The translations under genes and the position numbers were made by a program. The notes beneath the pieces were generated by a model. That model did not search any database, was not told the DNA's origin, and saw only the letters and a list, made by a program, of their open reading frames with translations. Shown one piece after another: positions 1,410 through 60,320 of a DNA stretch of 60,463 nucleotides. This DNA comes from a virus. Taxonomy: Duplodnaviria > Caudoviricetes. Every line of letters starts with the position of its first letter. Positions within the stretch are counted from its first letter, which is position 1. The stretch covers positions 1 to 60,463 of the IMG/VR virus record IMGVR_UViG_3300030450_002177; one strand, given 5' to 3'.

Positions 1410-1552
1410 TGAAAAAAAAGCTAAAAGTAAAAAGACTTAAAAGGCTCAATGCTCAAAATAAGATGTTCAAAAAGACAGGACATTGGAGTATTAGAAGTAT
1501 GGCTAATGCAAGTCTTAAAGAATCACAAGCTAACGACACGCTAACAATCTAA
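1406..1552 (+). CDS. small basic hypothetical protein (48 aa, not in ORF track)
   Basis: AGGAG SD, ATGA overlap. Confidence 0.5.
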   Translation: MMKKKLKVKRLKRLNAQNKMFKKTGHWSIRSMANASLKESQANDTLTI

Positions 1553-1576
1553 ATTGCCACATGATAAACTTATTGT

Positions 1577-2290
1577 GTGGCAGACGAATATCAATTAAAA
1601 AACTATCTTCTCTCTATGCAATCGCATTGGAGTATATCTCATAGTACCTATAACGCAGTACAAGAATCATTACCAATCATAGCTAAGTTCACTGGACAGG
1701 ACGGTGTTGGTAAGATGCAGAAGACACCTATCAATAAACAGCTAAAGAAGATACACCCTGACATCTACAAGATACCTCTATTCAGAAGACAGTTTTGTAA
1801 GATGTTGCTTGACGAGATCAAGAGCATTAATTTTGAAACCAACGAAGACGAAGATGAACTTAGACAGATACCTGAAATCGTTTTAAAAGAAAAGGTGCCT
1901 GAGCTACATCGCAACATGTGGTTTATCGTTAGGACGATATTAAATCCTATCTTCTTTTCTATCTGGCAACGCAACTGTGGAGATATAGCTTCTGTCCAAA
2001 TAGCTAATTACAATTTGAAAGACAAACAACAGGGCAACTGGCACCATGACGACTCTTCTGATATTAGTGTGGTGGTACCACTTAATACTGGTAAGTATCA
2101 AGGTGGTGGTACTGAGTTTCATAATTACGGTAAAGTCGATCCATTGCCTACAGGACACGCACTTATTTTTCCCAGCTTTACACAAATGCACCGAGGTCTG
2201 CCTGTAGAAATGGGAGACCGTTATTTGTTGGTCTTTTGGTTATACGATAGGAAACGAGTGCAGTGGTTTATAGAGAACGACTTACCATAG
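1577..2290 (+). CDS. 2OG-Fe(II) oxygenase (prolyl/lysyl hydroxylase-like)
   Basis: HxD (WHHDD), GGGTEF, distal H-R-G and R-Y-L-L-V-F-W. Confidence 0.85.
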   Translation: MADEYQLKNYLLSMQSHWSISHSTYNAVQESLPIIAKFTGQDGVGKMQKTPINKQLKKIHPDIYKIPLFRRQFCKMLLDEIKSINFETNEDEDELRQIPEIVLKEKVPELHRNMWFIVRTILNPIFFSIWQRNCGDIASVQIANYNLKDKQQGNWHHDDSSDISVVVPLNTGKYQGGGTEFHNYGKVDPLPTGHALIFPSFTQMHRGLPVEMGDRYLLVFWLYDRKRVQWFIENDLP

Positions 2291-3061
2291 ATCGGTTAAC
2301 TCTACTACCTGTGTTCCTTTGACGTTATAAGGAAGATACTCACCAGATTTTTCTGCTTCTAGCAGTGCATGTAATGCTTGTTCGTTTTTAGCCTGTCCAT
2401 ACTTGATGGCTTCGTCTGACATTTCATACACAACGTAAGGATAAGGTTGTGCTTTTTCCTGTGCCAAAAAGGAAAAGCCTTCTATTGGTAAACCAACGGC
2501 ACGACACGCATCAATGTATAAAGATGCTTGCATGTGGTAACGAAAGCTATTAATAGCCGTTTTAAAGCCCCTAGGAGACGCATCACGACACGTTTTTAAA
2601 TCCCATACCCTCTTACCATCATACCAGTCTAAACGTGACTTAAATGGCTGTCCATGTAGCTGATAGCACAAAGTCAGCTCTGTCTTATCATTCTCTCCAT
2701 CTGGTATTAAGTGCGCTATTGTCTCTCTGCGCTCCATACAGACATCGTAAAGCGTTTCTGGTATAGGGGTTAGGTTGCCTACCTGTTCTTTAAATTCAGC
2801 GTATGCTGCCTTACCATCTTTCGTTCTACGGTCTAATTTGGGCTCTATAATGAACTCTTTATCAAAATTGTGTAGCTCTAAAAATACTGTGTGTTGAACT
2901 CGACCTTCTAACAAAGCTGGTGATTCCTCAAAACCTTCTTTGTTTTTCCAGCTGTAAATACATTTATCTACATCTTTTAAATCAGACGCTCTGTACGCTG
3001 GTATCTCGTTGTAATCTTCAAATGGCATGTCTTCATACACACCTTCTTTAAATTCTTTCAT
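2282..3061 (-). CDS. PD-(D/E)XK exonuclease, RecE/ExoVIII (DUF3799)-like
   Basis: KSRLD...DLKT, YxxQxxxY, QEK..PY motifs. Confidence 0.85.
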   Translation of the reverse strand: MKEFKEGVYEDMPFEDYNEIPAYRASDLKDVDKCIYSWKNKEGFEESPALLEGRVQHTVFLELHNFDKEFIIEPKLDRRTKDGKAAYAEFKEQVGNLTPIPETLYDVCMERRETIAHLIPDGENDKTELTLCYQLHGQPFKSRLDWYDGKRVWDLKTCRDASPRGFKTAINSFRYHMQASLYIDACRAVGLPIEGFSFLAQEKAQPYPYVVYEMSDEAIKYGQAKNEQALHALLEAEKSGEYLPYNVKGTQVVELTDLW

Positions 3062-3073
3062 TTATATCCTCTT

Positions 3074-3796
3074 TTAATAAGCACCAGAATAAATTTCTTT
3101 GCTCTCTTGTTCGTCAGGTTCTTCTGGAACATCCCAACAGTTTATATTGCCAGCCACGGTTCTACGCTCACCTTCACCAAAGAAAGGATAGACGCTGTGC
3201 TGTAGCCAAGAAGGAAACAGTAGTAGCTTTCCTACCTCTGGTCTAACTATTCTTGACTGTGAAGGTCTGAGACGCTCAGGGTCTAATATCTGATTCAATC
3301 CATAAACGAAGTTTAAGTAGCCGTTTACGGCTCCTGATGAATTGTATAAATCAGCGTTCTTACCTAACTCTGCTATCTGTGGTGGCACCATAGTCCATGT
3401 GGTGAATGAAATTCCCATCAGCGAAGATGTTGCATGGTCATGGATAGGATTAAAGTCACCTTCATAGCTATGCACTGACCAAAGATCATCTATATTAATG
3501 TGCTTGGGTTTAACATTAGCTCCCACCATTTTCACAAATTGCTGAATGTAATTCACTGCCAGCGTTTCGACCAATCTTACAAATGGTTTTAATTCTTCTG
3601 TTTTGTAGTCCATGAACAGTTGCTCGCCTTGGTTTATTTGACCAACCAAGTAATCGCCATGCGACTTTTTATTAACGTCTTTCTTTAATTTGTTTAGGTA
3701 TTCGTTTAAAGAGTTAACCATCTGCTCAGTTAGCTGGTGCTCTAACATAAGGGCAGAAGGTAATGGGTAAACTGTGTACTTTATTCCTTCACTCAA
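3074..3796 (-). CDS. putative 2OG-Fe(II) oxygenase (TIGR02466-like)
   Basis: WSVH...NPIHDH, FPSWLQHSVYPF, ERRTVAGN; paralog of 28073..28780. Confidence 0.8.
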   Translation of the reverse strand: MSEGIKYTVYPLPSALMLEHQLTEQMVNSLNEYLNKLKKDVNKKSHGDYLVGQINQGEQLFMDYKTEELKPFVRLVETLAVNYIQQFVKMVGANVKPKHINIDDLWSVHSYEGDFNPIHDHATSSLMGISFTTWTMVPPQIAELGKNADLYNSSGAVNGYLNFVYGLNQILDPERLRPSQSRIVRPEVGKLLLFPSWLQHSVYPFFGEGERRTVAGNINCWDVPEEPDEQESKEIYSGAY

Positions 3797-3817
3797 GATT
3801 TTAGCTCCTTCTTTCGA

Positions 3818-4096
3818 CTACTCAATGAACTTCTCTGCCTCTGTCATCAGGTCCTTTTCAAACTGTGTGTCTTGCCTTTGTATTTCTTCTATAAGCTTAC
3901 TGATATACCACTGATGCTTCTTTAAATCTTCTATCTCTTTACCTTTGTATTTGAACCTATGCAAATACTTGATGGCTGCACCCTCCAGATAATATCTGTA
4001 GGCTTCACCTAGCTGTTGTTTGATGTAATCAATACACTCAACCTCACTGGATGTATAGTGAGGTGGTGCATTGACTAAATCTATTGAATCACTCAT
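3818..4096 (-). CDS. DUF3310 family protein
   Basis: VNxPxHY, ECID, KYLxR.KxKG..EDLKKxxWY. Confidence 0.85.
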   Translation of the reverse strand: MSDSIDLVNAPPHYTSSEVECIDYIKQQLGEAYRYYLEGAAIKYLHRFKYKGKEIEDLKKHQWYISKLIEEIQRQDTQFEKDLMTEAEKFIE

Positions 4097-4123
4097 TTTT
4101 TCTTGTGTCCTATATCTTTAAAC

Positions 4124-4182
4124 TTCCTTGGGCGACTCTTGGAGGTGTATAAGTGTGATGATAAACCGAGCCACCCTTGGAA
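4124..4182 (-). ncRNA. candidate antisense hairpin RNA in the SSB operon
   Basis: Stem UUCC-AA-GGGUGGCUC/GAGUCGCCC-AA-GGAA pairs fully only on the minus strand (2 G-U); 29-nt loop complementary to early leaders. Confidence 0.6.
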
Positions 4183-4183
4183 A

Positions 4184-4846
4184 TCAAAAGGGAATGTCGT
4201 CATTCTCCTTTTTATCGTTGGCTAAGTCAGCCAACCCTTCTCCCCCAGAAGAAGTTTCTTCTACGTCATCGTCACCTTTAGCAGCCAACAATTCAAAACT
4301 TTCTTCAATCAAAGTTTGTTGCCACTCAGGTAATGAGTCAAATACATCGCACATTTCTTTAGTTTCCTTTGATGTGTTGCCATTGAACTCATCGCAATAA
4401 ATTTTAAGATCAAAAATGATTGGTTCATTTTGTGTAGCTGTCTTTTTAAAATCATCTGGTTTAAATATGGCTTTAATTCTTGCCCTTTCATTAACGTGCT
4501 CTACTTCTAAAGTAGCTGGAGCGCCTATCATCTTGTCTATTTCAAAACCCTCAAGCTCTTCCTTAGTAAAGGAAGTTCCACGCCACGTTACTAGGTCTTT
4601 GTACAAAGTAGCGTTCTCGTTCAAAGAAACCGTATAAGTTTTAGATATGCTCATGGGTCTACCGTCTGCCATTTTTTCTGAAGGTATTTCCCAAGACACA
4701 TTTAATGTATGTCTTTTTTTCTTAGGATTGTCTTTGAACTGTTCCTCTCTTGTACCTTGGTCAACGATTTTATAACACACTGCTGTGTATTTACCTTCTG
4801 GTAATGGTTCAAAGTCGCCACCACTTGCTGTTATTTTTATACTCAC
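4184..4846 (-). CDS. single-stranded DNA-binding/replication protein
   Basis: PEGxY..C..D-G-T N-terminus, acidic tail ending DDIPF, replication module context. Confidence 0.75.
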   Translation of the reverse strand: MSIKITASGGDFEPLPEGKYTAVCYKIVDQGTREEQFKDNPKKKRHTLNVSWEIPSEKMADGRPMSISKTYTVSLNENATLYKDLVTWRGTSFTKEELEGFEIDKMIGAPATLEVEHVNERARIKAIFKPDDFKKTATQNEPIIFDLKIYCDEFNGNTSKETKEMCDVFDSLPEWQQTLIEESFELLAAKGDDDVEETSSGGEGLADLANDKKENDDIPF

Positions 4847-4894
4847 AATATTTCCTCCATTTTTTGATTTGATTTAATTGTAAATTAGTGTAGG

Positions 4895-4922
4895 ATTATA
4901 CAGTTTTTTATAAATATAGCAA
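4895..4922 (-). promoter_or_regulatory. sigma70-like promoter for SSB-DUF3310-oxygenase-RecE operon
   Basis: TTGCTA-16-TATAAT on minus strand in divergent intergenic region. Confidence 0.55.
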
Positions 4923-4937
4923 TAGTGAGATACGACC

Positions 4938-7091
4938 TTGAAAATAAGCAGACCAAACACCAAAAACTTTGACCGACCTTTAACCTCAGATTACCAAGCA
5001 CAATTTTTAAGTTTCATGCAAGAACAAGGCATGGAGCCTGACCCGAAAACAGGATTGGTGTTTGACGGAAGTATCGGAAGAGCTTACGTCAATCTTGGTG
5101 GTGAAAGAAAGCTGTCTGGTTGGTACCAGCTCTGGATAGAGCAAAGTGTCCCCTTTGGTCGAGTGGGAGACTATCGTATCTCCATGGACCAACCGACAGC
5201 GATCTGGAAACCAGAAAATAGGAAGCGCCAGACCATTACTAAAGCAGAACGTGAAGAGATAGAGCGTTTACAAAAAGAAGTAGAGATTAAAAAGGCTGCT
5301 AAATACAGTAAAGCTGCTAAACGTGCTCAAGGTATATGGGATGGTGCTGCGCCTTGTGAGCGTCATGCTTATTTAGAGCGCAAACAAGTATTGTCTTATG
5401 GTTTACGTCAAGACGAAAAAGGTTTGCTAATGATTCCATTGTTGGACATCAATCTATCGGTGGTAGGTCTACAATATATTAATGACGATGGCACCAAGCG
5501 TTTCCTCACTGGTTCTAAAAAAAGTGGTAGCTTTTTTATATTAGGTCAAGAGATACTCAAGTCGGCAGACACCATTTATTACGCAGAAGGTTACGCTACG
5601 GCTGCTTCTATACATAAAGACATGTCTTTACCTGTCTTTGTCGCTTTCGATGCTTACAACCTGTCTGCTGTAGCAGAAACCGTCTTTGAAACACTGAAAG
5701 ACCGTAAGCATATTTTTATAGCAGACAACGATGACAGTCAAACGGGTGAAAAGGAAGCCGTTAAAGCCTGTAAATGGATCACTAAGAACAAAGGTGTGGC
5801 TGAGGTGCACATGCCTGAAACAAAAGGCGATTACAACGACCATAGGGTGGTCAGTGGCGAAGTATTGCCTGCCCTACAGAATATCGATGTCCCCACAGAA
5901 GTCGATTTTACAAAATCTGAGAAAGGACGTATGTTGAACATTAAAGACAATGTATTGGGAGTTATGAAGACGCACAGTATTGATTGCAATTACAACGTCA
6001 TTAAGAAAAGAATGGAAATAGACATACCAAACACATCATTTATCGCTGACATGAAAGAAGAAGCAAGTTTGGTGGAAATAGAAGATCGCTGTATCAAGAT
6101 GGGTGTCCCACATACTCGAGTTAGAGATTATTTGAAGGTTTTGGCTAATGAATACAATCCTGTGGTTGAATGGATAGACAGCGAGCCTTGGGACGGCGCT
6201 TCACGGCTACAGGACTTCCTAGATACGATCACTTCCAGCACACCCACAGCTCTGAAAGACATGTTGCTCAAGAAATGGTTAATTTCCTGTGTGGCAGCTG
6301 CTTATGAGCCCAAGGGTGTCGAATTAGAAGGCATATTAGTGTTCCAAGGTGCTCAAGGTTTAGGTAAAACGCTTTGGTTTAAAAGACTGTGCGATTACAA
6401 CAAAGGATGGCTATTGGAAGGTGCAACGCTGAACCCAAGTGATAAGGACAGCGTGAAAAGGGCAGTCAGCCACTGGATAGTCGAACTCGGAGAGATTGAA
6501 TCCACCTTTAAGAAGAGTGATATAGACCAATTAAAGGCATTTGTGACGGCGAAGACAGACGAATTGAGGCTACCCTATGATAGAGCCTTCACAACGTATC
6601 AACGGCGCACAGCGTTCTACGCTAGTGTTAACGCAAGAGAATTTCTTACTGATAGTTCTGGGAATCGAAGATTCTGGTGTATTTCAGTCACTGACATCAA
6701 CGTGAATCACGGTATCGACATGCAACAACTGTGGGCTGAGGTAAAAGAGACTTTGTATGTACAAGGGCAGAAGAACTGGTTTTTAAGCCCCGATGAGCGT
6801 GAGCTGTTGCAAGATAGTAACGAAGGCTACCGTACCCAGTCCAGTGTCGAAGACTTGTTGCTGCAACACGTTAACTTTGGTAGCGAACACACAAAGCCTG
6901 TACAGATGACTAAGCTGTTGCGAGACTTAGGGATTGGAAATCCGAGGATGCCCGATTTTAAAGACGCAGCGAGGGTGCTCTTTGAGCGAGGGGTGGAACC
7001 CAGACGCTCCAATGGAAAGAAAGTCTACGATATAGATTACGACACGCCACAAGACGACATGCCAACCACTAACTACGGAGGGTTTGATTGA
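4938..7091 (+). CDS. primase-helicase (TOPRIM + VapE/VirE-like P-loop)
   Basis: AEGYATA, ADND, DYND; Walker A GAQGLGKT, WIVELGE, RLPY, GNRRF. Confidence 0.9.
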   Translation: MKISRPNTKNFDRPLTSDYQAQFLSFMQEQGMEPDPKTGLVFDGSIGRAYVNLGGERKLSGWYQLWIEQSVPFGRVGDYRISMDQPTAIWKPENRKRQTITKAEREEIERLQKEVEIKKAAKYSKAAKRAQGIWDGAAPCERHAYLERKQVLSYGLRQDEKGLLMIPLLDINLSVVGLQYINDDGTKRFLTGSKKSGSFFILGQEILKSADTIYYAEGYATAASIHKDMSLPVFVAFDAYNLSAVAETVFETLKDRKHIFIADNDDSQTGEKEAVKACKWITKNKGVAEVHMPETKGDYNDHRVVSGEVLPALQNIDVPTEVDFTKSEKGRMLNIKDNVLGVMKTHSIDCNYNVIKKRMEIDIPNTSFIADMKEEASLVEIEDRCIKMGVPHTRVRDYLKVLANEYNPVVEWIDSEPWDGASRLQDFLDTITSSTPTALKDMLLKKWLISCVAAAYEPKGVELEGILVFQGAQGLGKTLWFKRLCDYNKGWLLEGATLNPSDKDSVKRAVSHWIVELGEIESTFKKSDIDQLKAFVTAKTDELRLPYDRAFTTYQRRTAFYASVNAREFLTDSSGNRRFWCISVTDINVNHGIDMQQLWAEVKETLYVQGQKNWFLSPDERELLQDSNEGYRTQSSVEDLLLQHVNFGSEHTKPVQMTKLLRDLGIGNPRMPDFKDAARVLFERGVEPRRSNGKKVYDIDYDTPQDDMPTTNYGGFD

Positions 7092-18380: not shown

Positions 18381-19214
18381 TTAATCATCGTAAATAACCA
18401 GTTCTAAATCTTTGATCTCGATTGGGTACCATTTTTCAACCAAAGCCTCGTAAACTTTAAGGTCTTGTTCGCAGTATTTGATGTACTTAGAAGGCTCACC
18501 ATAAATTGGAGTTCCTTTTTTTTCTCTACCCCATCCATTAGCTAATCCTTCAAAAACTTTTTCGCCTTCTGCTTCCATTTTTTCGTACCTAGCCTTGGCT
18601 TTTTTAAGTCTTACAATTTCTTCTTTAACTAAGTCACATGAAAGCTCTAGTGGAAGAGCATGTCTACCCATGCAACTGCCATTTCTCCAACCATCAACCG
18701 TATATCCGTGGTCAGCAATTTTGAAGCTATCTATGTTAAGTTTGTGTCTTTTCCTACAAAGCTGGCAGTGACCCCAGTATTTAGCAGATTTTTCAGTTCT
18801 AACACCTTCAGTCTTTATTTTCTTTGGCTTGGCTATGATTTCTGCTTCCTTGAAAAACGCTCTAAGCTCTACTAGGTTTTTAATTGGAATCCACACATTA
18901 CCAAAAGTTGTAAAAAACTCAGAGTGTTTGGCTTCTCTTACATTGTGAAGGTCCCAAGGTGTATCATCACTAGGGTTAGCATTTTTAAAATCTTGATACT
19001 CAGGGCTCATATACCTGTAGTCTGTGCCTAGCTCTTCTTTTACTTTAGCTCTGTAACAATCTTGAGCATAACCATTAAGAGTGCCATAAGCTCTGTTCAA
19101 CTGGTCCATAGCATTTTTTTTTGCTGACTTAGTGTAAAACTGACCATTATAAATGGCTTCAGCCCTTTTAACTCTTTCTCCGTACTCTTCCCAATGTGGT
19201 GAAATTTTAGTCAT
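18381..19214 (-). CDS. early protein with CxxC/H/C Zn-binding motif
   Basis: GHCQLC...IADHGY...SCMG. Confidence 0.7.
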   Translation of the reverse strand: MTKISPHWEEYGERVKRAEAIYNGQFYTKSAKKNAMDQLNRAYGTLNGYAQDCYRAKVKEELGTDYRYMSPEYQDFKNANPSDDTPWDLHNVREAKHSEFFTTFGNVWIPIKNLVELRAFFKEAEIIAKPKKIKTEGVRTEKSAKYWGHCQLCRKRHKLNIDSFKIADHGYTVDGWRNGSCMGRHALPLELSCDLVKEEIVRLKKAKARYEKMEAEGEKVFEGLANGWGREKKGTPIYGEPSKYIKYCEQDLKVYEALVEKWYPIEIKDLELVIYDD

Positions 19215-19438
19215 TACGCCTTCTCCTCATATATATCTTCATATTCAAAGTTTATCTCTAAAGATTTTGAGACCTTTTCATAAAGGTCTGAAAGAACGTG
19301 CCTTCTAGTAGTAGACGTTTCATTATCAAACTCTCTTTTTAAAAGATTTTCAAGAGTGTGTTTTTCCATCAAGCTGATGTGTCCTGCCTTGCTCACATCT
19401 TTATTTATTAAAGCAGGTTTGTAATTGAAGTTTGTCAT
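19214..19438 (-). CDS. first gene of early cassette (hypothetical)
   Basis: start revised to ATG 19438 behind AGGAGG SD. Confidence 0.7.
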   Translation of the reverse strand: MTNFNYKPALINKDVSKAGHISLMEKHTLENLLKREFDNETSTTRRHVLSDLYEKVSKSLEINFEYEDIYEEKA

Positions 19439-19520
19439 TTTTCCTCCTTCTTTATTGTTGTTTATCATATCCACATATACATTATACATATATTTATAAA
19501 TATGTACAACTTTTTACACA
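19439..19520 (-). promoter_or_regulatory. early promoter/leader copy A
   Basis: TTGTAC(19509-04)-17-TATAAT(19486-81); near-identical to 43541-43615. Confidence 0.85.
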
Positions 19521-19554
19521 TGTTTTTTTTATTTATTTTAGTCCTATTTTTGGA

Positions 19555-20070: not shown

Positions 20071-20139
20071 AAATGTATACAACGACACGCATTTAGTCTA
20101 TACTGTATTTGTGATGATAAATAAGGAAGGAATAAAAGC
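20071..20139 (+). promoter_or_regulatory. early promoter/leader copy B
   Basis: TATACA-17-TATACT(20099-104); leader GTGATGATAAA at +7. Confidence 0.65.
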
Positions 20140-21231
20140 ATGAAAGACTACCAAAGACAAAGACTGTATAACTGGGAGAACGCAGAACCTTGGATGGTAA
20201 AGAAAAGCGATCTTACAGAATCAGAGGTGCTTTACATTGTTAAAGAGTTAGACAAAATATTTAGAAAAAATTGGGAAATTAAAGAAACCAAAGTCCAGTT
20301 TTCCAACGGCAGAGGAATGAGCTGGGCAAACAAGTCTAAGATGAAATTAAAAAGAGATTGGGCATTGACTTGGGGTGTGGTCTTGCACGAATATGCACAC
20401 GTTATAACTGACGACAAACACGGACCTGAGTTTGTTGCAACCTTTTGTGGCTTAATCAATCGTTACCACCCAGACAAACCTTGCTTAAAAGAAATGGCAA
20501 AAACTCTAGGTGAATATGGATTGGACTTTAAATCGCTTAAAACTTTAGAAGATAGAGTGGCAATATCCAAACAACCTGACATCGACATATCTAAAGCGCC
20601 GATAGTAAAATCAAAATCAAGAGCTTTAACTCCAGAACAAAAAAGAAATAATAAGTTTAGAGCCAAGACTAAAGAATTATTAAAAGCTTGGGAAAGAAAA
20701 AGATGGGTATTAGGTGTTGATAGTGACCTTCACAAATTTGAATTTGATATTGAAAGAGTATATGACCCTCATTGGGGATTAGAGCTTTATGTCAGAAAAA
20801 CGGGTTGGATATATGATGACAAAATTACAGAGGGATTTGAATGGGAGTTGGAAGATACTTACGATAATTGGAAAGACGCTTATTACTGGTTGGCAAGCAA
20901 TGTTGTTGAAGTGTGGGAACTCTTCTTTACCAGCCCACCCAACGTGATGGGTGAAGACAAACCAACAGAAAGAAAAAGAGTAAAAAAATCTGGTCAAAGC
21001 CAAGAAGCTAAAGACAAAAAAGTTTATTACAACAGAGCCAGAAGGAGATTGGTCAAACATGGCTTTGAAATAATCTACGAAGGTGCGCACAAGAACTACA
21101 GGTCGGTTACGTTTAAAAACAACGAAACTCTGTTTGTGCAAGAAGCACAAGACAGTGCACCACTTAACATAGATTGGAAGAAAGTTTGCACAACCCTAGA
21201 AAATCTAGGCTATAAGGATGCAATTAGATGA
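20140..21231 (+). CDS. SprT-like zinc metallopeptidase domain protein
   Basis: VVLHEYAH...HGPEF. Confidence 0.75.
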   Translation: MKDYQRQRLYNWENAEPWMVKKSDLTESEVLYIVKELDKIFRKNWEIKETKVQFSNGRGMSWANKSKMKLKRDWALTWGVVLHEYAHVITDDKHGPEFVATFCGLINRYHPDKPCLKEMAKTLGEYGLDFKSLKTLEDRVAISKQPDIDISKAPIVKSKSRALTPEQKRNNKFRAKTKELLKAWERKRWVLGVDSDLHKFEFDIERVYDPHWGLELYVRKTGWIYDDKITEGFEWELEDTYDNWKDAYYWLASNVVEVWELFFTSPPNVMGEDKPTERKRVKKSGQSQEAKDKKVYYNRARRRLVKHGFEIIYEGAHKNYRSVTFKNNETLFVQEAQDSAPLNIDWKKVCTTLENLGYKDAIR

Positions 21232-24913: not shown

Positions 24914-27745
24914 ATGGCAAGTACATACGTTAATGATTTAAGACTCAACGAAATGGCGACAGGTGATGCGTCAGGAACTTGGGGTACGACCACAAACACA
25001 AACTTAGAATTAATAGCAGAAGCGTTTAGTTATGGCACAGAAGCTATAACAACCAACGCTGATACGCATACTACTACTATTGCAGACGGAGCAACTGATC
25101 CCGGTAGATCAATGTTTCTTAAATACACAGGTGCATTGGATTCTGCCTGTACTGTAACTATTGGACCAAACACAGTATCTAAACTATGGTTTATAGAAAA
25201 CGCTACTACAGGTTCGCAAAACTTAGTTATAAGTCAAGGCACAGGTGCAAATATAACAATACCTGCTGGCGATACTAAAATTATTTATTCTGATGGTGCT
25301 GGTTCTGGTGGTGCTATGGTAGATGCACTAGCTAGTATTTCTGCTGTAGATTTAAAAGTACAAGACGATTTGACAGTTACAGATGATGCTTCAATAGGTG
25401 GAGACTTAACACTTACAGGTAACGGTGATTTTAACGGAGACTTAGACGTAGATGGAACTACAGAAACAGACGCATTAACTATTAATGGCTCGGCAGTAAA
25501 CTACAAAGCGTTTGGTACTTCTTCAATTATGCTTGGCGATAATGCTACAGGAACTATTGATGCTGCTAATTATAATGTTGGATTAGGTGTTGATGTTTTT
25601 GCAGCTTTAACTTCTGGTGATGGGAACATAGCTATTGGTTTTGCAGCATTAGATGCTAACACCACAGCAAGTTATAACGTAGGTATAGGACATAATGCTC
25701 TTGGAGCAACCACAACTGGTCAGCAAAATATTGCAGTTGGAGCAAATTCACTTGATGCAAATACGACTGGTGGAGACAATGTCGCAGTAGGAACAGGTGC
25801 TTTAGGAGCAAATACCACAGCCTCAAATAACGCAGCAGTTGGACATTTGTCTTTAACAGCAAACACTACAGGTCATTCAAATACAGCAGTAGGTTCTTTA
25901 TCACTTGATGCTAATACTACTGGAATTAGAAATACTGCCGTTGGTTTTGAAGCTTTAAGTGCAAATACTGATGGCACACAAAACACAGGAGTTGGTAAAG
26001 GTGCTTTACTTGTAAATACCACAGGTATTGAAAATACAGGGGTTGGTTCAAGTGCTCTTGACGCTAACACCACTGGTTCATATAACACAGCAATGGGACA
26101 GGGTGCTTTAGATGCTAATACAACAGCAGATAGCAACACTGCTTTCGGACACGATGCTTTAAAAGCAAATACCACAGGAACTCTTAACGTGGCAGTTGGT
26201 AAAGATGCTTTGTTAGCAAATACAACAGCTAATTCAAACACGGCAGTTGGCAATATAGCACTTGCTGCAAACACTACAGGAGCAGCGAATACGGCAGTGG
26301 GAAGAAATGCTCTTGGTGCAAATACGACTGCTTCAAATAACGTGGCAGTTGGGCATGGTGCTTTGGAATCTAATACGACAGGTGCTTCAAACACAGGAAT
26401 TGGTTATCAAGCTTTAGATGCGAATACTACAGGTGGTGCCAATGTTGGTCTTGGTTATGGAGCTCTTGGAGCAAATACAACAGCTTCAAATAACGTTGCT
26501 GTGGGCGTAAATGCTATGGAGGCAAACACCACAGGCACACAAAACGTAGCCGTAGGTCAAGCAGCTTTAGACGAATCTAGCACAGCAAGTTATAACACAG
26601 CAGTTGGTTATAGAGCCATGTCTGCAACTACAACTGGACAAGAAAACGTTGCATTTGGAACAGACGCAATGTTAGCAAATACTACTGGTGCTAGAAACAC
26701 AGTTTTAGGTGGCTATGCTTTAAGCGTTAATACAACAGGAGGAAACAACGTAGCGATTGGTTATTCTGCTATGTTAGCAAACACTACAGCATCAGAAAAT
26801 GTTGGTATCGGTGTTTATTGTTTAGACGCTAACACTACTGGGGGAAATAATTGTGGAGTTGGATATAATGTTTTAGGTGCTAACACCACAGGTTCTCAGA
26901 ACACGGCTGTAGGACATACTGCATTAGATTCTAATACTACAGCATCCAATAATACAGCAATGGGATATGGTGCTTTAGGAGTAAACACTACAGGTTCTGA
27001 AAATGTAGCAGTTGGAAGAAATTGTCTTGATGCAAATACCACAGGGCAAGACAATACTGCTATTGGTAATTCAGCGTTAGGAGGCAACACCACAGCTTCA
27101 AACAACACAGCCGTTGGTTCTGCTGCTTTGTTATTATGTACTACAGGAGCAGGTAATACTGCTATAGGAATTAATGCAGGTGGGTCAGTAACTACAGGTG
27201 GTAATCATTTCTTTATTGGGCATGGGGCAGGTATGACTTCTGGACCGGGAGGTACGCCGGGTGGTGCTATAACAACAGGTAATAACGAGGGTGTGATTGG
27301 AAATGGTGATACAAGTAAAATTAATACGCAAGTATCTATAACAGTAGCATCTGATGAAAGAGATAAAACAGACTTTCAAGCTTTAACAGCAGGTTTAGAT
27401 TTTGTAAACGCATTGAAACCTTATACTTACTATTGGGATAAACGAGCCAAGTATGTTGACTGGGAAACTAATCCTGATACAGACCTAAATTCTGTAACCA
27501 ATGATGGAACGCACAAAGAAGACTGGATGGATTTAGGTTTTAAAGCACAAGATGTAGTTGCTTTAGAAGATTCAATAAATCATAAAATATCTAATAAAAC
27601 TAATTTAGTTACCAGTCTATCAGGTGATGGAAAACAATACGCTTTACAATACGAAAAGTTTGTACCAATTCTAGTTAAAGCTTTGCAAGAAGCTGACGAT
27701 AAAATAGATGCGTTGACTACTAGAGTCACGACATTAGAAGGATAA
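24914..27745 (+). CDS. tail fibre with 14-aa repeats and C-terminal S74 intramolecular chaperone
   Basis: WGxxTNxN anchor; NxAVGxxALxANTT repeats; SDERDK, GFxAQDV, terminal coiled coil. Confidence 0.9.
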   Translation: MASTYVNDLRLNEMATGDASGTWGTTTNTNLELIAEAFSYGTEAITTNADTHTTTIADGATDPGRSMFLKYTGALDSACTVTIGPNTVSKLWFIENATTGSQNLVISQGTGANITIPAGDTKIIYSDGAGSGGAMVDALASISAVDLKVQDDLTVTDDASIGGDLTLTGNGDFNGDLDVDGTTETDALTINGSAVNYKAFGTSSIMLGDNATGTIDAANYNVGLGVDVFAALTSGDGNIAIGFAALDANTTASYNVGIGHNALGATTTGQQNIAVGANSLDANTTGGDNVAVGTGALGANTTASNNAAVGHLSLTANTTGHSNTAVGSLSLDANTTGIRNTAVGFEALSANTDGTQNTGVGKGALLVNTTGIENTGVGSSALDANTTGSYNTAMGQGALDANTTADSNTAFGHDALKANTTGTLNVAVGKDALLANTTANSNTAVGNIALAANTTGAANTAVGRNALGANTTASNNVAVGHGALESNTTGASNTGIGYQALDANTTGGANVGLGYGALGANTTASNNVAVGVNAMEANTTGTQNVAVGQAALDESSTASYNTAVGYRAMSATTTGQENVAFGTDAMLANTTGARNTVLGGYALSVNTTGGNNVAIGYSAMLANTTASENVGIGVYCLDANTTGGNNCGVGYNVLGANTTGSQNTAVGHTALDSNTTASNNTAMGYGALGVNTTGSENVAVGRNCLDANTTGQDNTAIGNSALGGNTTASNNTAVGSAALLLCTTGAGNTAIGINAGGSVTTGGNHFFIGHGAGMTSGPGGTPGGAITTGNNEGVIGNGDTSKINTQVSITVASDERDKTDFQALTAGLDFVNALKPYTYYWDKRAKYVDWETNPDTDLNSVTNDGTHKEDWMDLGFKAQDVVALEDSINHKISNKTNLVTSLSGDGKQYALQYEKFVPILVKALQEADDKIDALTTRVTTLEG

Positions 27746-27755
27746 GGAGTAAAAA

Positions 27756-28073
27756 ATGGCAGTAAGCAAAAAATTAGTAAAAACCATACCTTATGTCAAA
27801 TCCAGTAAAGTGGAAGAATGGCATTTGGATATGCAATACGAAAACGACAGCGAAGGCGATGCGACTTATTACAAAACTGTATTCAGGCACACAGCCGTAG
27901 CAGCCGATGGTGATTTTACCAAAGCAGCAAAAGGTTCGTTTAGTAACGCTGACTTAGTAGCGTTGTGTCCTGTATCGCATTGGGATGTAGTATTCGCTAG
28001 TCAGGTGGATTCAGTTATTACGAATCCAACTACTGAACCAGTACCTGACGAGTCATTTGCAGTACCTAGTTAA
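27756..28073 (+). CDS. tail fibre-associated protein
   Basis: directly after fibre gene, AGGAG SD. Confidence 0.55.
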   Translation: MAVSKKLVKTIPYVKSSKVEEWHLDMQYENDSEGDATYYKTVFRHTAVAADGDFTKAAKGSFSNADLVALCPVSHWDVVFASQVDSVITNPTTEPVPDESFAVPS

Positions 28074-28780
28074 TGGCTGAAGTAACAGTACATAATATGC
28101 CTAGTGTCTTTGTTATGGAGACACAGATGCCAGAGAGTATGGTGAATGACTTAAATGATTATCTTGACGAATACGTTGAAGATAAAAACAAGAAGTCATT
28201 AGCTGATACTTTAGTTGGGCAAATAGCACAAGGCGAACAATTATTAATGGATAACGCTGACCCAAGATTAAAAGAATACACAGACTTTGTTTGTGGATTA
28301 GGAGCAGACTATATTAATTTCTTTTCTCAAAATACTGGAGCAACGTTAAAAGCACCTAAAGCAGTAGCTGTAGATGAAACTTGGTCAGTACACAGTTACG
28401 AAGGAGACTATAATCCTATACACGATCACGGTACTAAAACCATAATGGGTATATCCACTACTGGCTGGACTAAAGTACCACAACAAATACTAGATCAACC
28501 TGTAGCTGGATCACCTAACTATTCTTTATACAATACGTCAGGTGATTGCGATGGTTATATAGCATTTCAATATGGGTTGAATCAATTAATGGACACAGAT
28601 AGATTGAGACCACCTCAATCTTTTGTTATGCAACCAGAGGTAGGGAAGTTGTTGGTTTTCCCTTCATGGTTGCAACACATGGTATATCCTTTTAAGGGAG
28701 AAGGTGAAAGAAGAACGGTTGCCTCTAACCTTAATTGTTGGGATGTGCCTCAAGAACCAACACAAGAAGAAGGAGAATAA
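28073..28780 (+). CDS. putative 2OG-Fe(II) oxygenase (TIGR02466-like)
   Basis: NPIHDH, FPSWLQHMVYPF, ERRTVASN. Confidence 0.8.
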   Translation: MAEVTVHNMPSVFVMETQMPESMVNDLNDYLDEYVEDKNKKSLADTLVGQIAQGEQLLMDNADPRLKEYTDFVCGLGADYINFFSQNTGATLKAPKAVAVDETWSVHSYEGDYNPIHDHGTKTIMGISTTGWTKVPQQILDQPVAGSPNYSLYNTSGDCDGYIAFQYGLNQLMDTDRLRPPQSFVMQPEVGKLLVFPSWLQHMVYPFKGEGERRTVASNLNCWDVPQEPTQEEGE

Positions 28781-35098: not shown

Positions 35099-35166
35099 AT
35101 GTGCTACTCCATTAGCACTAGGGCTAGGTAGTACCAATGTATGTCACTATCAAGCTACCTAGCCTG
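35099..35166 (+). ncRNA. two-hairpin RNA / terL leader, candidate antisense regulator
   Basis: TATACT -10 at 35087; hairpins GTGCTA/TAGCAC (loop CTCCAT) and GGCTAGGTAG/CTACCTAGCC. Confidence 0.55.
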
Positions 35167-35177
35167 CTTTTAAAGGT

Positions 35178-36665
35178 ATGAAAAACGTATCTATAAAAGA
35201 TTTTGATATTTTGTCTGAGCAAGACAAAACAGAGGCTATAGCCCTATTAAACCGTTATGAGCAAATAGATAAGCAGTCTAATTGTCATGTAGATTTCTTG
35301 TCTTTTGTTAAACACATGTGGGGCGACACTTTTATTGAAGGTCGTCATCATAAGATTATCGCTGATAAATTCAATCGTATAGCACAAGGCAAACTAAAAA
35401 GACTAATTGTTTGCTTACCCCCTAGACACTCTAAATCAGAATTTGCTTCAACCTTCTTTCCAGCTTGGATGATGGGCTTAAACGGTTCTTTAAAGATAAT
35501 ACAATGTACACACACAGCCGAACTAGCTGTCAGGTTCGGTAGAAAAGTAAGAAACCTTATTGATAGTGAAGATTTTAAGTTTATTTTTCCTAATTTAAAA
35601 TTACAAGCAGACAATAAAAGTGCTGGTAGGTGGACAACAAACGAAGAAGGTGAGTCTTTCTACGCTGGTGTAGGTGGAGCTATTACGGGTCGTGGTGCTG
35701 ATTTATTGATTATTGACGATCCTCATTCTGAGCAGGACGCTCTTTCTCCTAAAGCATTAGAATCAGCTTATGAGTGGTATACATCAGGTCCTAGGCAGAG
35801 GTTACAGCCGGGAGGCACCATAGTCATAGTAATGACTCGTTGGAGCACGAAAGATTTGGTTGGTAAAGTATTGAAGAAGCAGGGTGAAGAGAACGCAGAC
35901 CAATGGGAAGTGATTGAGTTTCCAGCAATTATGCCAGAAACAGACAAACCATTGTGGGGCGAGTTTTGGAAAAAAGAAGAATTACTTAGCGTTAAAGCAT
36001 CACTTCCAGTAGCTAAATGGAACTCACAATGGATGCAAGACCCTACAGCTGAAGAAGGTTCAATCGTAAAAAGAGAATGGTGGAGAAAGTGGGCTGGAGA
36101 AAATGTGCCAGAATATGATTATGTTATACAAAGTTATGATACTGCGTTTTCTAAGAAAGATACTGCTGACTATTCTGCAATAACAACTTGGGCTATTTTT
36201 ATAGATGAAGAGAACGACATGCCCAATATAATCCTATTAGACGCAAAAAGGGTTAGGGTGGACTTTCCTGAGCTAAAACGATTAGCTTTTGATGAGTACA
36301 AGTATTGGGAGCCAGACTGTGTATTAATAGAAGCTAAAGCATCAGGAACGCCTCTTACACAGGAATTAAGGCGTATGGGAATACCAGTAACTGCTTATTC
36401 CCCAAGCAGAGGACAAGACAAAATTGCCAGAATGAATAGTGTTGCGCCAATCTTTGAATCTGGAATGGTTTGGATGCCAGAAGAAACTTTTGCAGAAGAA
36501 GTGGTTGAAGAGATGGCTAGTTTCCCTTATGGTGATAACGATGACTATTGCGATAGTGCCACGATGGCTTTAATGCGTTTTAGACAGGGTGGTTTTTTGT
36601 CATTAAAAGAAGACTATCAAGATGAGGTAAAATTACTAAAAAGAGACAGGACGGTTTATTATTAA
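35178..36665 (+). CDS. terL: terminase large subunit
   Basis: PPRHSKS Walker A, LLIIDD Walker B, SYDTA / IEAKASG / DDYCD nuclease motifs. Confidence 0.95.
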   Translation: MKNVSIKDFDILSEQDKTEAIALLNRYEQIDKQSNCHVDFLSFVKHMWGDTFIEGRHHKIIADKFNRIAQGKLKRLIVCLPPRHSKSEFASTFFPAWMMGLNGSLKIIQCTHTAELAVRFGRKVRNLIDSEDFKFIFPNLKLQADNKSAGRWTTNEEGESFYAGVGGAITGRGADLLIIDDPHSEQDALSPKALESAYEWYTSGPRQRLQPGGTIVIVMTRWSTKDLVGKVLKKQGEENADQWEVIEFPAIMPETDKPLWGEFWKKEELLSVKASLPVAKWNSQWMQDPTAEEGSIVKREWWRKWAGENVPEYDYVIQSYDTAFSKKDTADYSAITTWAIFIDEENDMPNIILLDAKRVRVDFPELKRLAFDEYKYWEPDCVLIEAKASGTPLTQELRRMGIPVTAYSPSRGQDKIARMNSVAPIFESGMVWMPEETFAEEVVEEMASFPYGDNDDYCDSATMALMRFRQGGFLSLKEDYQDEVKLLKRDRTVYY

Positions 36666-43511: not shown

Positions 43512-43540
43512 GGTCTAAATTTATTGAAATAATATGTATA

Positions 43541-43615
43541 AAAAGTTGTACATTTTTATAAATATATGTATAATGGACATGTGGAGATGATAAATAACAA
43601 TAAAAAGGAGAAAAA
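43541..43615 (+). promoter_or_regulatory. early promoter/leader copy C
   Basis: TTGTAC(43546)-17-TATAAT(43569), leader GTGGAGATGATAAA, AGGAG SD. Confidence 0.85.
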
Positions 43616-43795
43616 ATGAAAAGAAAATATAGAGAGTACAAAGGCATAAAAATTGAGTGTCAAATGACACCAAAGGGTTTTGACAGTGACTACTATAATG
43701 TTATGTATGTTTACAGATTGAATGGTGGTTTAAACGTCAGCCATAAACTTAAAGATGCCAAAGCTAGAATTGACAGATTTGTGGAGAAGGCGTAA
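43616..43795 (+). CDS. small early protein (59 aa, not in track)
   Basis: SD, first ORF behind promoter C. Confidence 0.7.
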   Translation: MKRKYREYKGIKIECQMTPKGFDSDYYNVMYVYRLNGGLNVSHKLKDAKARIDRFVEKA

Positions 43796-43917
43796 TGAGT
43801 AAATTTGCAATTACTTTCCGTCCTTGCGAGGTATGTGAGAATCCGTATGTTGAATACGTTAATGGTGAAACTTGTGGTTGTGAAGTTTGCCATGAAGGTT
43901 ACATGAATCAAGAATAG
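43795..43917 (+). CDS. small Cys-rich protein (40 aa, not in track)
   Basis: TAATG coupling; CxxC...CxCxxC. Confidence 0.55.
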   Translation: MSKFAITFRPCEVCENPYVEYVNGETCGCEVCHEGYMNQE

Positions 43918-43926
43918 GAGAAAAAA

Positions 43927-44262
43927 GTGAAAAATTTACTTAAAGAAATCAAGGAAGCTAAGAAAGAAGCTAAAAACAAAACTCTTAAATACGCTAAATG
44001 TGCTTTTGGTCAAGGCTGGGAAATTATACAAAGAGATAATTCGGGCAGAGAAGAAGAGCTAGCGTCTTTTGAAAGTGGCGAGCCTATTACTCTTAAAGCA
44101 ATTAAGGAAGTAACAGATTCCAATAGAACCTTAACTGCTAAAGAAATTTGGATTGAAGGGAGATATGTTGGAGCTAAAAACCTTTATGATTATATAAATA
44201 ATGAAGATTATATAGACAACGTAAATTATTGGGAAGTTGATCTTCTAAAGGAGGTAGAGTAA
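43927..44262 (+). CDS. hypothetical early protein
   Basis: AGGAG SD. Confidence 0.7.
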   Translation: MKNLLKEIKEAKKEAKNKTLKYAKCAFGQGWEIIQRDNSGREEELASFESGEPITLKAIKEVTDSNRTLTAKEIWIEGRYVGAKNLYDYINNEDYIDNVNYWEVDLLKEVE

Positions 44263-45089
44263 TGATAACTGGCTTGGGCAAAAGATATTACTACATAGGT
44301 TCTGGTTATGAGAACAAAATGTATACCCTTAGAGATTACGTTTCCTATACTAATGGCGAAACTTCTAGTGAAAGCGATAGGCACATGTTAAACCTTTCTA
44401 CTGATTATGAAGAGGCTTACAAAAAAGCCAAAATCTATGCCGAAAGGGATGATGTAACATTGCGTGCTTCTAAGGTTGATAATTTTGCACCTCTTGATCC
44501 AATCATTAGAAAAAGAAAAAGAAGCGCTGAGGAAATAGAAAAGGCTAAAATTGACTTGCAAATAGCAGTTGATGATTTTTTGCAAGCCAACCCGATCTTA
44601 GCACAGAACTTTGAAACTTATGGTGATGCAGATATTGAGGTGAAAAGAGAAATAGGTTTTGCTTTCTATGACATTAAAGACAAGCTTTATAAGTATGGCA
44701 ATCTGTCTGAAGCACAAGTAGATTTTTGTCTTAAAATGGTAGACAGCTATATTACCAGAAAAGAAAATGCAAAAGTATGGGCAGAAGAAAAAGCTGATGC
44801 AGAGCCAGTACCTGTGACTGAAGAAAGAATACAATTTACTGGAGAGGTTATAAAAACTGCATGGAAAGATTACACTTTGCCTAACGGTATGCCAACAAGC
44901 TCACAAAAATGCACTGTTAAAGATGACAGAGGTTTTGTGGTTTGGGGTGGTAATGTAGGTGAAAAGGGTGACAGGGTTACTTTCATGGCTAGAGTAACCG
45001 TTTCAGACAATGACCCTAAATTTGGCTTTTACAAAAGACCTACCAAAATACAACAAATTGAAAAAGCTGGAGTAGAAAACAATGGCTAA
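44262..45089 (+). CDS. early protein with C-terminal OB-fold-like domain
   Basis: YGNLSxxQ; R..F.G.V, DDRGF.VWG, GFYKRPTK. Confidence 0.65.
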   Translation: MITGLGKRYYYIGSGYENKMYTLRDYVSYTNGETSSESDRHMLNLSTDYEEAYKKAKIYAERDDVTLRASKVDNFAPLDPIIRKRKRSAEEIEKAKIDLQIAVDDFLQANPILAQNFETYGDADIEVKREIGFAFYDIKDKLYKYGNLSEAQVDFCLKMVDSYITRKENAKVWAEEKADAEPVPVTEERIQFTGEVIKTAWKDYTLPNGMPTSSQKCTVKDDRGFVVWGGNVGEKGDRVTFMARVTVSDNDPKFGFYKRPTKIQQIEKAGVENNG

Positions 45090-45841: not shown

Positions 45842-45890
45842 TTGCTAATTTGAAGCCCTAGTAGTATGATTTTACTACTAGGGTTTTTTT
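45842..45890 (+). terminator. terminator hairpin overlapping a promoter
   Basis: CCCTAGTAGTA/TACTACTAGGG + T-run; TTGCTA-17-TATGAT with the -10 in the loop. Confidence 0.65.
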
Positions 45891-60100: not shown

Positions 60101-60185
60101 TTTGTATAAATATGTATACATTTGTATAAAAAAGTGTATAATAAATATGTGGTGATAATTAAAAACAAAAAAGAAGGGGGTAAAA
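60101..60185 (+). promoter_or_regulatory. early promoter/leader copy D with phased TGTATA repeats
   Basis: TATAAT at 60137; leader GTGGTGATAA at +7; TGTATA at 60103, 60113, 60123, 60135. Confidence 0.7.
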
Positions 60186-60320
60186 ATGGTTAGAGTTATG
60201 AATTATTTAGAAAGACACAGTATTAGTGTTGCCATGATAAACATGGTAGCTAGTATTTATATAGCTGAAGCAGTAATCAACTTTGTTGCTTACATATTAA
60301 AAATAGTGGGGGTAGCGTAA
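60186..60320 (+). CDS. small hydrophobic early protein (44 aa, not in track)
   Basis: purine-rich SD, TAATG coupling. Confidence 0.55.
   Translation: MVRVMNYLERHSISVAMINMVASIYIAEAVINFVAYILKIVGVA

Follow-up and report, generated by a model that had tools for sequence, protein, structure and literature searches.

Control of phage genes by the phage's own trans-acting antisense RNAs is known in a few temperate elements (P1/P7 c4, P4 CI and P22 sar). RNase P matures the c4 RNA from a longer precursor into a stable small RNA. In the CI RNA of satellite phage P4, an exposed stem-loop sequence pairs with repeated leader boxes, with one RNA controlling several transcripts, and the RNA acts by premature transcription termination in the immunity circuit. 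Recognition begins at a loop on a stable stem in CopA/CopT of plasmid R1 and RNA I/RNA II of ColE1, and trans-acting small RNAs (sRNAs) derived from 3' untranslated regions (3' UTRs), such as CpxQ and SroC, share a transcript with the upstream gene and end in the intrinsic terminator of the mRNA. To our knowledge, almost nothing comparable has been described in lytic and uncultured phages. Here we describe a hairpin that follows a gene for a single-stranded DNA-binding protein (SSB)-like protein in the virus record IMGVR_UViG_3300030450_002177 (Caudoviricetes), which was analysed over its whole length of 60,463 bases ("the window"), and whose loop probably acts as an antisense element against other messages of the same phage. 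In the phages P1 and P7, loop sequences of the c4 antisense RNA pair with phage mRNA around the ribosome-binding site, as described in the accessible part of PMC12197685, and the c4 motif is listed in the accessible part of PMC2864571.

The hairpin lies on the minus strand and starts one base past the stop codon of the SSB-like gene; its coordinates, with those of the other features, are collected in Table 1. The stem comprises 13 pairs, two of them G-U, that flank an AA/AA internal loop, and outer pairs added in the minimum free energy (MFE) fold stretch the structure to about 4116-4190. Folded as the minus strand, the hairpin reached -26.3 kcal/mol (z -4.16) and none of 200 shuffled sequences was equally stable, whereas folding of the plus strand gave z -0.44 with 60 of 200 shuffles equally stable. 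The fold is strand-specific because two of the stem pairs are G-U. On its 3' side the stem continues into GUUUAAAGAUAUAGG with no U-tract, and a terminator scan of the window did not list the hairpin as an intrinsic terminator (29-nucleotide (nt) loop, no U-tract). Since no U-tract separates it from the DUF3310 gene, the hairpin would be internal to a polycistronic transcript. A plus-strand promoter in the loop (TATAAG) was considered as a separate candidate and rejected; it has no usable -35, and the word is missing in most clades of relatives.

The antisense reading draws its main support from relatives of this locus, where sequence comparison points to a conserved hairpin, covarying stems and complementarity that tracks the clade. 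An alignment of 25 SSB-like homologues was used to find relatives; two collections contain more than 1,100 candidate stretches that encode SSB-like relatives, and 160 loci were kept, 80 of them viral loci that were fetched and 80 from metagenomes. A hairpin with a long stem and a loop of 20-45 nt was present within a few bases of the stop codon in 51 of the 80 viral loci, at SSB identities from 93% to about 42%, and in about 37 of the 76 metagenome loci with enough sequence. The 29 viral loci that lack it are L040, L041, L043, L045, L054 and L061-L084, the last mostly at no more than 46% SSB identity. The hairpin directly follows the ssb-like gene irrespective of which gene comes next. Seventeen relatives were folded, with z between -1.9 and -6.7, and for 14 of these no shuffle in 200 was equally stable.

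Among the hairpins of the 51 viral loci and the window, 35 are distinct, and these have 25 distinct stems. In a set of 21 different closing stems, each of seven positions is occupied by three or four Watson-Crick pair types, with G-U in addition at positions 3-7. The 5' arms are on average 29% identical; when arms were swapped between hairpins they paired at 43%, with full pairing in 9 of 420 swaps. Own arms are 100% paired by construction, because the arms were defined by requiring pairs, and the independent support is the stem at the same place and its stability. G-U accounts for 58 of 356 stem pairs (16%), which would be A-C mismatches on the opposite strand. Diverged homologues thus carry compensatory pair changes on one strand, as expected of a structured RNA, and three features argue for an RNA: the share of G-U pairs, the constant sense orientation and the location inside a transcription unit. 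These pairs were counted by script, with no covariance model, as MAFFT, given 23 hairpins (alignment A2), lined up the loop word and left the stems out of register. The best-conserved part of that alignment is the ATCATCAC column block, and clades at 45-65% SSB identity retain the anti-box core AUCAUCAC on stems of different sequence. A CUCC-type motif is found in nearly all related loops. In the closest relative (93% SSB identity), one of 59 hairpin bases is changed, versus 5 of 27 in the spacer after the hairpin.

In the window, the loop is complementary to a short box in five promoter-leader units, P1 to P5 (Table 1). The GUG begins at the seventh base after the -10 hexamer in P1, P2, P3 and P4, and the boxes of these four leaders lie 19-38 nt before the main start, at the 5' end of the leader and not at the main ribosome-binding site. 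The fifth unit, P5, is new here; its box lies 7 nt before a GTG start at 1577, and the unit is kept in the relative L005. That P5 is a promoter is inferred from its likeness to P4, which carries the same word, AACGACACGC, upstream of its -10. A degenerate box in the primase leader is also complementary to the loop, and in the clade of L013 the position corresponding to 4926..4933 carries GUGAUGAU(A), with 8-11 nt complementary. The five units are paralogous, as seen for example in an 88-nt inverted repeat, so that together they count as one observation, namely that their common box is the complement of the loop. That repeat belongs to inverted copies of a cassette of promoter, leader and first gene (19451-19538 versus 43517-43604, 88 nt, 86%; 19200-19237 versus 43772-43809, 38 nt, 82%), one of which lies amid structural genes.

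These results bear out much of what the sequence-only reading had described in the window. It had proposed a minus-strand stem made strand-specific by G-U pairs, and the loop sequence that it gave is identical to ours, including the anti-Shine-Dalgarno (anti-SD) CCUCC. Its four complementarities, at P4, P3, P1 and P2, were recovered with the same lengths and the same single G-U pair, as was the 7-nt spacing of GUG from each -10. It had also placed the hairpin just 3' of an SSB stop codon, where the position is right and the gene can be called SSB-like only.

Two further features of the leaders were observed. The word (AC)AACGACACG(C/G) stands 8-11 nt upstream of a -10-like hexamer in P5 (1534-1543) and P4 (20081-20090) and also in promoter-like sites of distant relatives (loci L074, L076 and L079 and record G004); it looks like the upstream element of a second class of promoters. 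Each boxed leader is also an open frame from the 5'-proximal GUG/AUG to or beyond the main start (20111-20143, 43581-43619, 60149-60193, and 19474-19436 on the minus strand). The P4 frame VMINKEGIKA and the P1 frame VEMINNNKKEKK end in ATGA, with the stop overlapping the main ATG; the P3 frame stops 5 nt past the main ATG codon, and the P2 frame is in frame with the main open reading frame (ORF). The boxed leaders may be mini-ORFs coupled to the main gene.

We used a swap test to compare, in each of ten clades with one representative each, the clade's own loop with the loops of the other clades on its own leaders. Promoter-leader units were located in the relatives by a promoter pattern independent of the loop, and 15 longer contigs were fetched whole. 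The own loop ranked 1, 3, 1, 1, 1, 2, 5, 2, 3 and 1, and was thus the best in five of the ten clades, with permutation p values of 5e-6 (summed energy), 1.3e-3 (number of firsts) and 0.0086 (longest exact complement). Controls with the same-sense loop (p 0.79) and the opposite-strand loop (p 0.63) were flat.

Leader and loop change together in individual clades. In the window the leader UGUGAUGAUAAA is complementary to the loop UUUAUCAUCACA, in L027 GUGAUGAUAAUUAA to UUAAUCAUCAUCAC, and in L030 UGAUGAUUAC to GUAAUCAUCA over 10 of 10 positions, with two compensatory changes relative to the window. In L053, L032 and L035, leaders start with (U)GUGAGAU(A/UA) and loops carry (U/A)AUCUCACA, giving 8-10 nt; the leader word UGUGAGAU(A/UA) of L053 and L032, which is complementary to it, recurs in three leaders of a single genome. 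The SD region of these three loci, GAGAAAAA, is colinear with and complementary to the 5' half of that loop. L007 and L012 have GGGAAA plus (A)UAACAAAA(AAG), colinear with the loop, and the L007 word is UAACAAAAAAG. In record G004, the loop AUCUCCGG is the complement of CCGGAGAU, which occurs 11 times in 51.7 kb; one occurrence is the loop's own antisense, and nine of the ten others lie 3-8 nt before a start codon. Clade-specific leader complements stand at the same distance from the -10 in L027, L030, L053, L032 and L164. A separate observation concerns L030, L027, L028 and L052, in which many genes begin ...GGGGGUGAGUGAUGA... (for example L027 minus 5288, 4936 and 4398); GUGAUGA in these loci overlaps ordinary SD-plus-start contexts, and the word also arises from SD/start syntax.

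The start region of the primase gene was a second site of complementarity. L037/L044 and L049 have an 8-11 nt complement there instead of in an early-type leader, similar complements were found in the L013 clade (8-11 nt), L164 (10 nt) and L152 (6+11 nt), and a swap test on primase leaders gave p 0.005. The start of the ssb gene itself was not supported as a general target of the loop; 8-nt matches occur in the L013 clade, but a 17-clade swap test gave p 0.31 (energy).

For validation, we used eight clades new to the analysis, drawn from the 80 metagenome loci. The targets were all SD-plus-start regions on either strand that have 40 or more codons downstream, unselected, with the clade's own hairpin masked. 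The longest complements of the own loop were 10, 12, 12, 13, 9, 6, 6 and 7 nt, and exact permutation gave p 0.0065 (match) and 0.00069 (energy). The matches fell in the ribosome-binding regions of genes that come first after a strong promoter-like site (GGAGAAUCAAAU-G; AAUAAAUAGGAG; AUUAAUAUGAAAA), and in L164 and L152/L155 the match was the primase start region. The complementary word of G004 and of clades O, P, Q and J' is fixed 3-8 nt before the start, at the SD or start codon, and not at the promoter. The reverse complement of the loop reads SD, spacer and AUG in many clades. An opposite-strand gene starting in the loop was rejected: such frames have a median of 15 codons, 9 of 53 reach 40 codons, and close relatives range from 3 to 39 codons. 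With no conserved antisense ORF, the loop looks like the complement of a ribosome-binding region and not like a coding start.

Collectively, these findings suggest that the hairpin is probably a trans-acting antisense RNA, of an 'anti-leader / anti-TIR' type (TIR, translation initiation region), on the transcript of the ssb operon. The hairpin would be carried on the transcript of the SSB-like operon, with its large loop as the antisense element, and could act within the long mRNA or after processing. The trans partner of the loop would be a short box, located in the 5' leader or ribosome-binding region of other phage messages; in the window this would be (G)UGAUGAUAAA, at the extreme 5' end of the five promoter-proximal leaders P1-P5 and containing the 5'-proximal GUG/AUG, with a weaker target site in the primase leader. 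Pairing would block ribosome access or alter stability, and it might also block a leader start coupled to the main gene. Complements at the SD, the start codon and the 5' end suggested repression, in which case target genes would be turned down once the ssb operon is highly expressed.

A broader proposal can be put forward tentatively. A widespread lineage of uncultured marine phages may carry a dedicated 'anti-TIR' hairpin at the 3' end of an ssb-like gene, with a loop complementary to the SD/start-codon or 5'-terminal box that a class of phage messages has in common, and through it ssb transcript abundance would titrate translation of that whole gene class (the first genes of promoter-proximal cassettes, and primase). 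Regulator and regulon would co-evolve, each clade with a private 'address' (AUCAUCAC, AUCUCACA, AUCUCCGG and UUUCAUAUU). The core idea of the sequence-only reading, a loop antisense to phage leaders that would explain why the transcribed leader is conserved, is supported by relatives whose loops complement their own leaders or ribosome-binding regions better than the loops of other clades do, as seen in both sets of swap tests. Its target set of four early operons proved too narrow and too fixed: the candidate set includes P5 and, in several clades, the primase start and SD/start regions, and it varies between clades.

Several observations weigh against this reading. Evidence from the window alone is modest. 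Complements of at least 9 nt to the whole loop number 14, compared to 10.7 +/- 4.9 for 300 shuffled loops, which is not above chance, and coding-region sites score as high as leaders in duplex scans. In a whole-loop RNAduplex scan of both strands, the best matches were G-rich coding windows that pair with the C/U-rich half of the loop, and the four leaders were absent from the top 7 genome-wide. When the 15-nt anti-box was scanned instead, P4 ranked 4, P1 25, P3 29, primase 58 and P2 62 among 60,444 windows, so that the expectation that the four leaders would head a genome-wide ranking was only weakly borne out. RNAcofold of the hairpin with each leader gave ddG values of 0 to -0.8, no better than shuffled leaders; as the method cannot place intermolecular pairs inside a closed hairpin loop, these values speak neither for nor against pairing. 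The non-random feature in the window is position, as 4 of the 14 matches, plus a G-U-containing one, lie 5-7 nt after a -10-like hexamer; GTGATGATAAA with at most one mismatch has six sites versus 1.76 expected, a number reached in 1 of 100 shuffles. The anti-SD CCUCC sits 3' of the anti-box in the window loop, an order in which a leader paired at its box could not also pair colinearly at its SD. With no U-tract or defined 3' end after the hairpin, a discrete small RNA is not evident. One metatranscriptome run yielded a 201-nt contig that spans 4898-5000 only and not the hairpin, and that gives no strand or ends.

Among the relatives, 3 of the 10 discovery clades (L037/L044, L049 and L046/L056) have an early-type leader with no complement, and validation clades K and L have none either, with 7 nt only in clade M, at short loci of 4.7-6.4 kb. 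The discovery leader rows (n=32) involved judgement, since eight were dropped as not leader-like, five duplicates were unused, and P3 and P4 of the window were added by coordinate. Finally, complementarity statistics cannot separate RNA-RNA pairing from a shared double-stranded DNA site.

We consider it unlikely that the hairpin is instead a cis-only RNA element of the ssb operon, such as a hairpin for processing or stability, a weak attenuator or a means of coupling translation to the next gene, with its conserved loop bound by a protein (the SSB-like protein or a translational repressor, for example) and the leader complementarity functionless. Its fixed place at the 3' end of one gene, whichever gene comes next, would suit such an element, as would the U-rich run that follows the stem in L013, L021 and L022, the L007 clade, in which the next gene begins 6 nt after the stem, and the chance-level number of complements in the window. 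However, a protein-bound loop does not predict the clade-matched complementarity to leaders and TIRs that was seen in two sets, with a flat same-sense control. The stem in the window is also not terminator-like, and the loop is far bigger and better conserved than a stability hairpin requires.

It is very unlikely that the shared word is a double-stranded DNA operator of one regulator, placed at leader +1 to +12 for repression, beside the ssb -35 for activation, and within the hairpin region. A box-like ATCTCAC (the complement of 4926-4933), or ATCATCAC, does adjoin the -35 of the promoter-like site of the SSB-like gene in the window and in the L013 clade, the distance between box and -10 is fixed in five units, and the statistics used here are blind to the difference between RNA and DNA. 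An operator, however, has no need of a flanking inverted repeat, and the stems here covary with 16% G-U on one strand; the words of G004 and clades O, P, Q and J' are tied to the SD or start codon rather than to a promoter; and L027, L025 and L030 lack the copy at the ssb promoter while retaining both the loop and the leader box. Equally improbable is a real antisense family whose conserved target is the neighbouring primase/helicase start, with the dispersed-leader match of the window a coincidence of a short A/U-rich word: the primase-start complements, their swap test and the chance-level total in the window fit it, but the primase site is the weakest in the window (4+4 with a bulge, rank 58, versus 12/12 at P4), and the complements in homologous units of five relatives are clade-specific and keep the same spacing from the -10.

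The hairpin lies in what appears to be the replication module of the window. The SSB label rests on the DDIPF end of the protein, an AlphaFold2 (AF2) model and a weak Foldseek match, and should be taken as SSB-like only: the model has a predicted local distance difference test (pLDDT) score of 77.5, and its best match is the OB-fold ssDNA-binding protein PrgE (E 2.3e-3), followed by still weaker rows for SSB, PriB and RPA. A Pfam search of the protein gave no match, and a PDB sequence search with the SSB-like profile gave none below E 0.8. Promoters and transcription start sites, including that of the SSB-like gene, were inferred from consensus. A nucleotide search of positions 3000-7000 against cultured phages gave no match, and the primase protein is no more than 35% identical to any record.

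Table 1. Positions of the hairpin, of the candidate target units and of neighbouring genes in the window (arrows give the minus-strand 5' to 3' direction).
Feature	Position	Strand	Details
Hairpin	4124..4182	minus	5' arm UUCCAAGGGUGGCUC (4182->4168); 29-nt loop GGUUUAUCAUCACACUUAUACACCUCCAA (4167->4139); 3' arm GAGUCGCCCAAGGAA (4138->4124)
Anti-box part of loop	4154..4165	minus	UUUAUCAUCACA; apical loop in the MFE fold
CCUCC, anti-SD-like loop part	4141..4145 (4145->4141)	minus	CUCC-type motif in nearly all related loops
Unit P4	20099..20142	plus	-10 TATACT 20099-20104; box UGUGAUGAUAAA 20110-20121, 12/12; main ATG 20140
Unit P3	60137..60188	plus	-10 TATAAT 60137-60142; box UGUGGUGAUAA 60148-60158, 11 pairs, one G-U; main ATG 60186
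Unit P1	43569..43618	plus	-10 TATAAT 43569-43574; GUG 43581; box GAUGAUAAA 43586-43594, 9/9; main ATG 43616
Unit P2	19436..19486	minus	-10 TATAAT 19486->19481; GUG 19474->19472; box AUGAUAAAC 19468->19460, 9/9; main ATG 19438->19436
Unit P5 (putative promoter)	1534..1579	plus	AACGACACGC 1534-1543, 8 nt, TAAATT 1550-1555, GCCAC, box AUGAUAAAC 1561-1569, 9/9
Degenerate box in primase leader	4926..4933	plus	GUGAGAUA; 4+4 complementary to loop, one bulge
SSB-like gene	4184..4846	minus	220 amino acids (aa), C-terminal end DDIPF; PHROGs phrog_862, function unknown
Promoter-like site of SSB-like gene	4895..4922	minus	TTGCTA, 16 nt, TATAAT; 10/12 consensus matches
DUF3310 gene	3818..4096	minus	begins 27 nt after hairpin
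2OG-Fe(II) oxygenase gene	3074-3796	minus	same gene row as SSB-like gene
PD-(D/E)XK protein gene	2282-3061	minus	same gene row as SSB-like gene
Toprim/VapE primase-helicase gene	4938-7091	plus	TTG start 4938; divergent from SSB-like gene row

Other features of the window were noted in passing. The 2OG-Fe(II) oxygenase gene of the replication module has an apparent paralogue at 28073-28780, and a 126-nt inverted repeat of 71% identity joins 3117-3242 and 28633-28758. A tail-spike-like ORF of 943 aa (24914-27745, phrog_4636) includes, at 25645-27146, about 20 tandemly arranged units that recur every 51 nt (17 residues). Three further hairpins were seen: an intergenic one at 35121-35165 that precedes the gene at 35178 and has a 21-nt loop on a perfect 12-bp stem; a second intergenic one at 45852-45887, after 45633, whose stem resembles a terminator and leads into a T-run; and, at 44548-44593 on the minus strand, a 15-bp stem antisense to the gene at 44262-45089, whose loop AAAUCAUCAACUGCUA resembles the anti-box, which may well be chance.

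If the antisense reading is right, the hairpin would be a conserved post-transcriptional switch with a multi-gene regulon, recognisable from sequence, in scores of marine phage contigs, and it would explain the conserved transcribed leader words beside promoters. It would also allow culture-free sorting of phage genes into co-regulated classes and provide natural sets of co-evolving RNA-RNA pairs. No such hairpin after an ssb gene was found in the open full-text literature, outside subscription journals and supplements, or in the accessible part of the review PMC12197685. Scanned over its full length against Rfam 15 at gathering thresholds, the window gave no family, c4 (RF01695) and STAXI included, and at E up to 10 on positions 4050-4250 Rfam gave three chance-level matches, none of them to c4.

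The STAXI motif is a conserved structured element that is often near genes for ssb or ssDNA-binding proteins, according to the accessible part of PMC2864571. It is a tandemly repeated pseudoknot, proposed to act as single-stranded DNA, whereas the element described here is a single hairpin. The plasmid kissing-loop RNAs differ in being cis-encoded and fully complementary, while here the complements span 8-13 nt and the candidate targets lie elsewhere in the genome. In contrast to 3'-UTR-derived sRNAs, the hairpin in the window has no terminator or U-tract, and the next gene lies 27 nt downstream. The closest likenesses are to the two phage systems. Like c4, the element is phage-encoded and has complementary sequences in its loop, here by computed complementarity, but it is a single long-stemmed hairpin with one loop of 20-45 nt after an SSB-like gene in seemingly lytic marine phages, and several dispersed leaders are its candidate targets, where c4 has one downstream antirepressor operon. 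Like P4 CI, it is matched by repeated leader boxes, with five units in the window, although these boxes lie at the 5' end, the SD or the start codon, suggesting control of translation or stability, and no homology was found. On this comparison of sequences, the predicted element is one that would work like the loop-presenting c4 of P1/P7 and CI of P4 and is a member of neither family, because it has no Rfam match, another architecture and another genomic setting.

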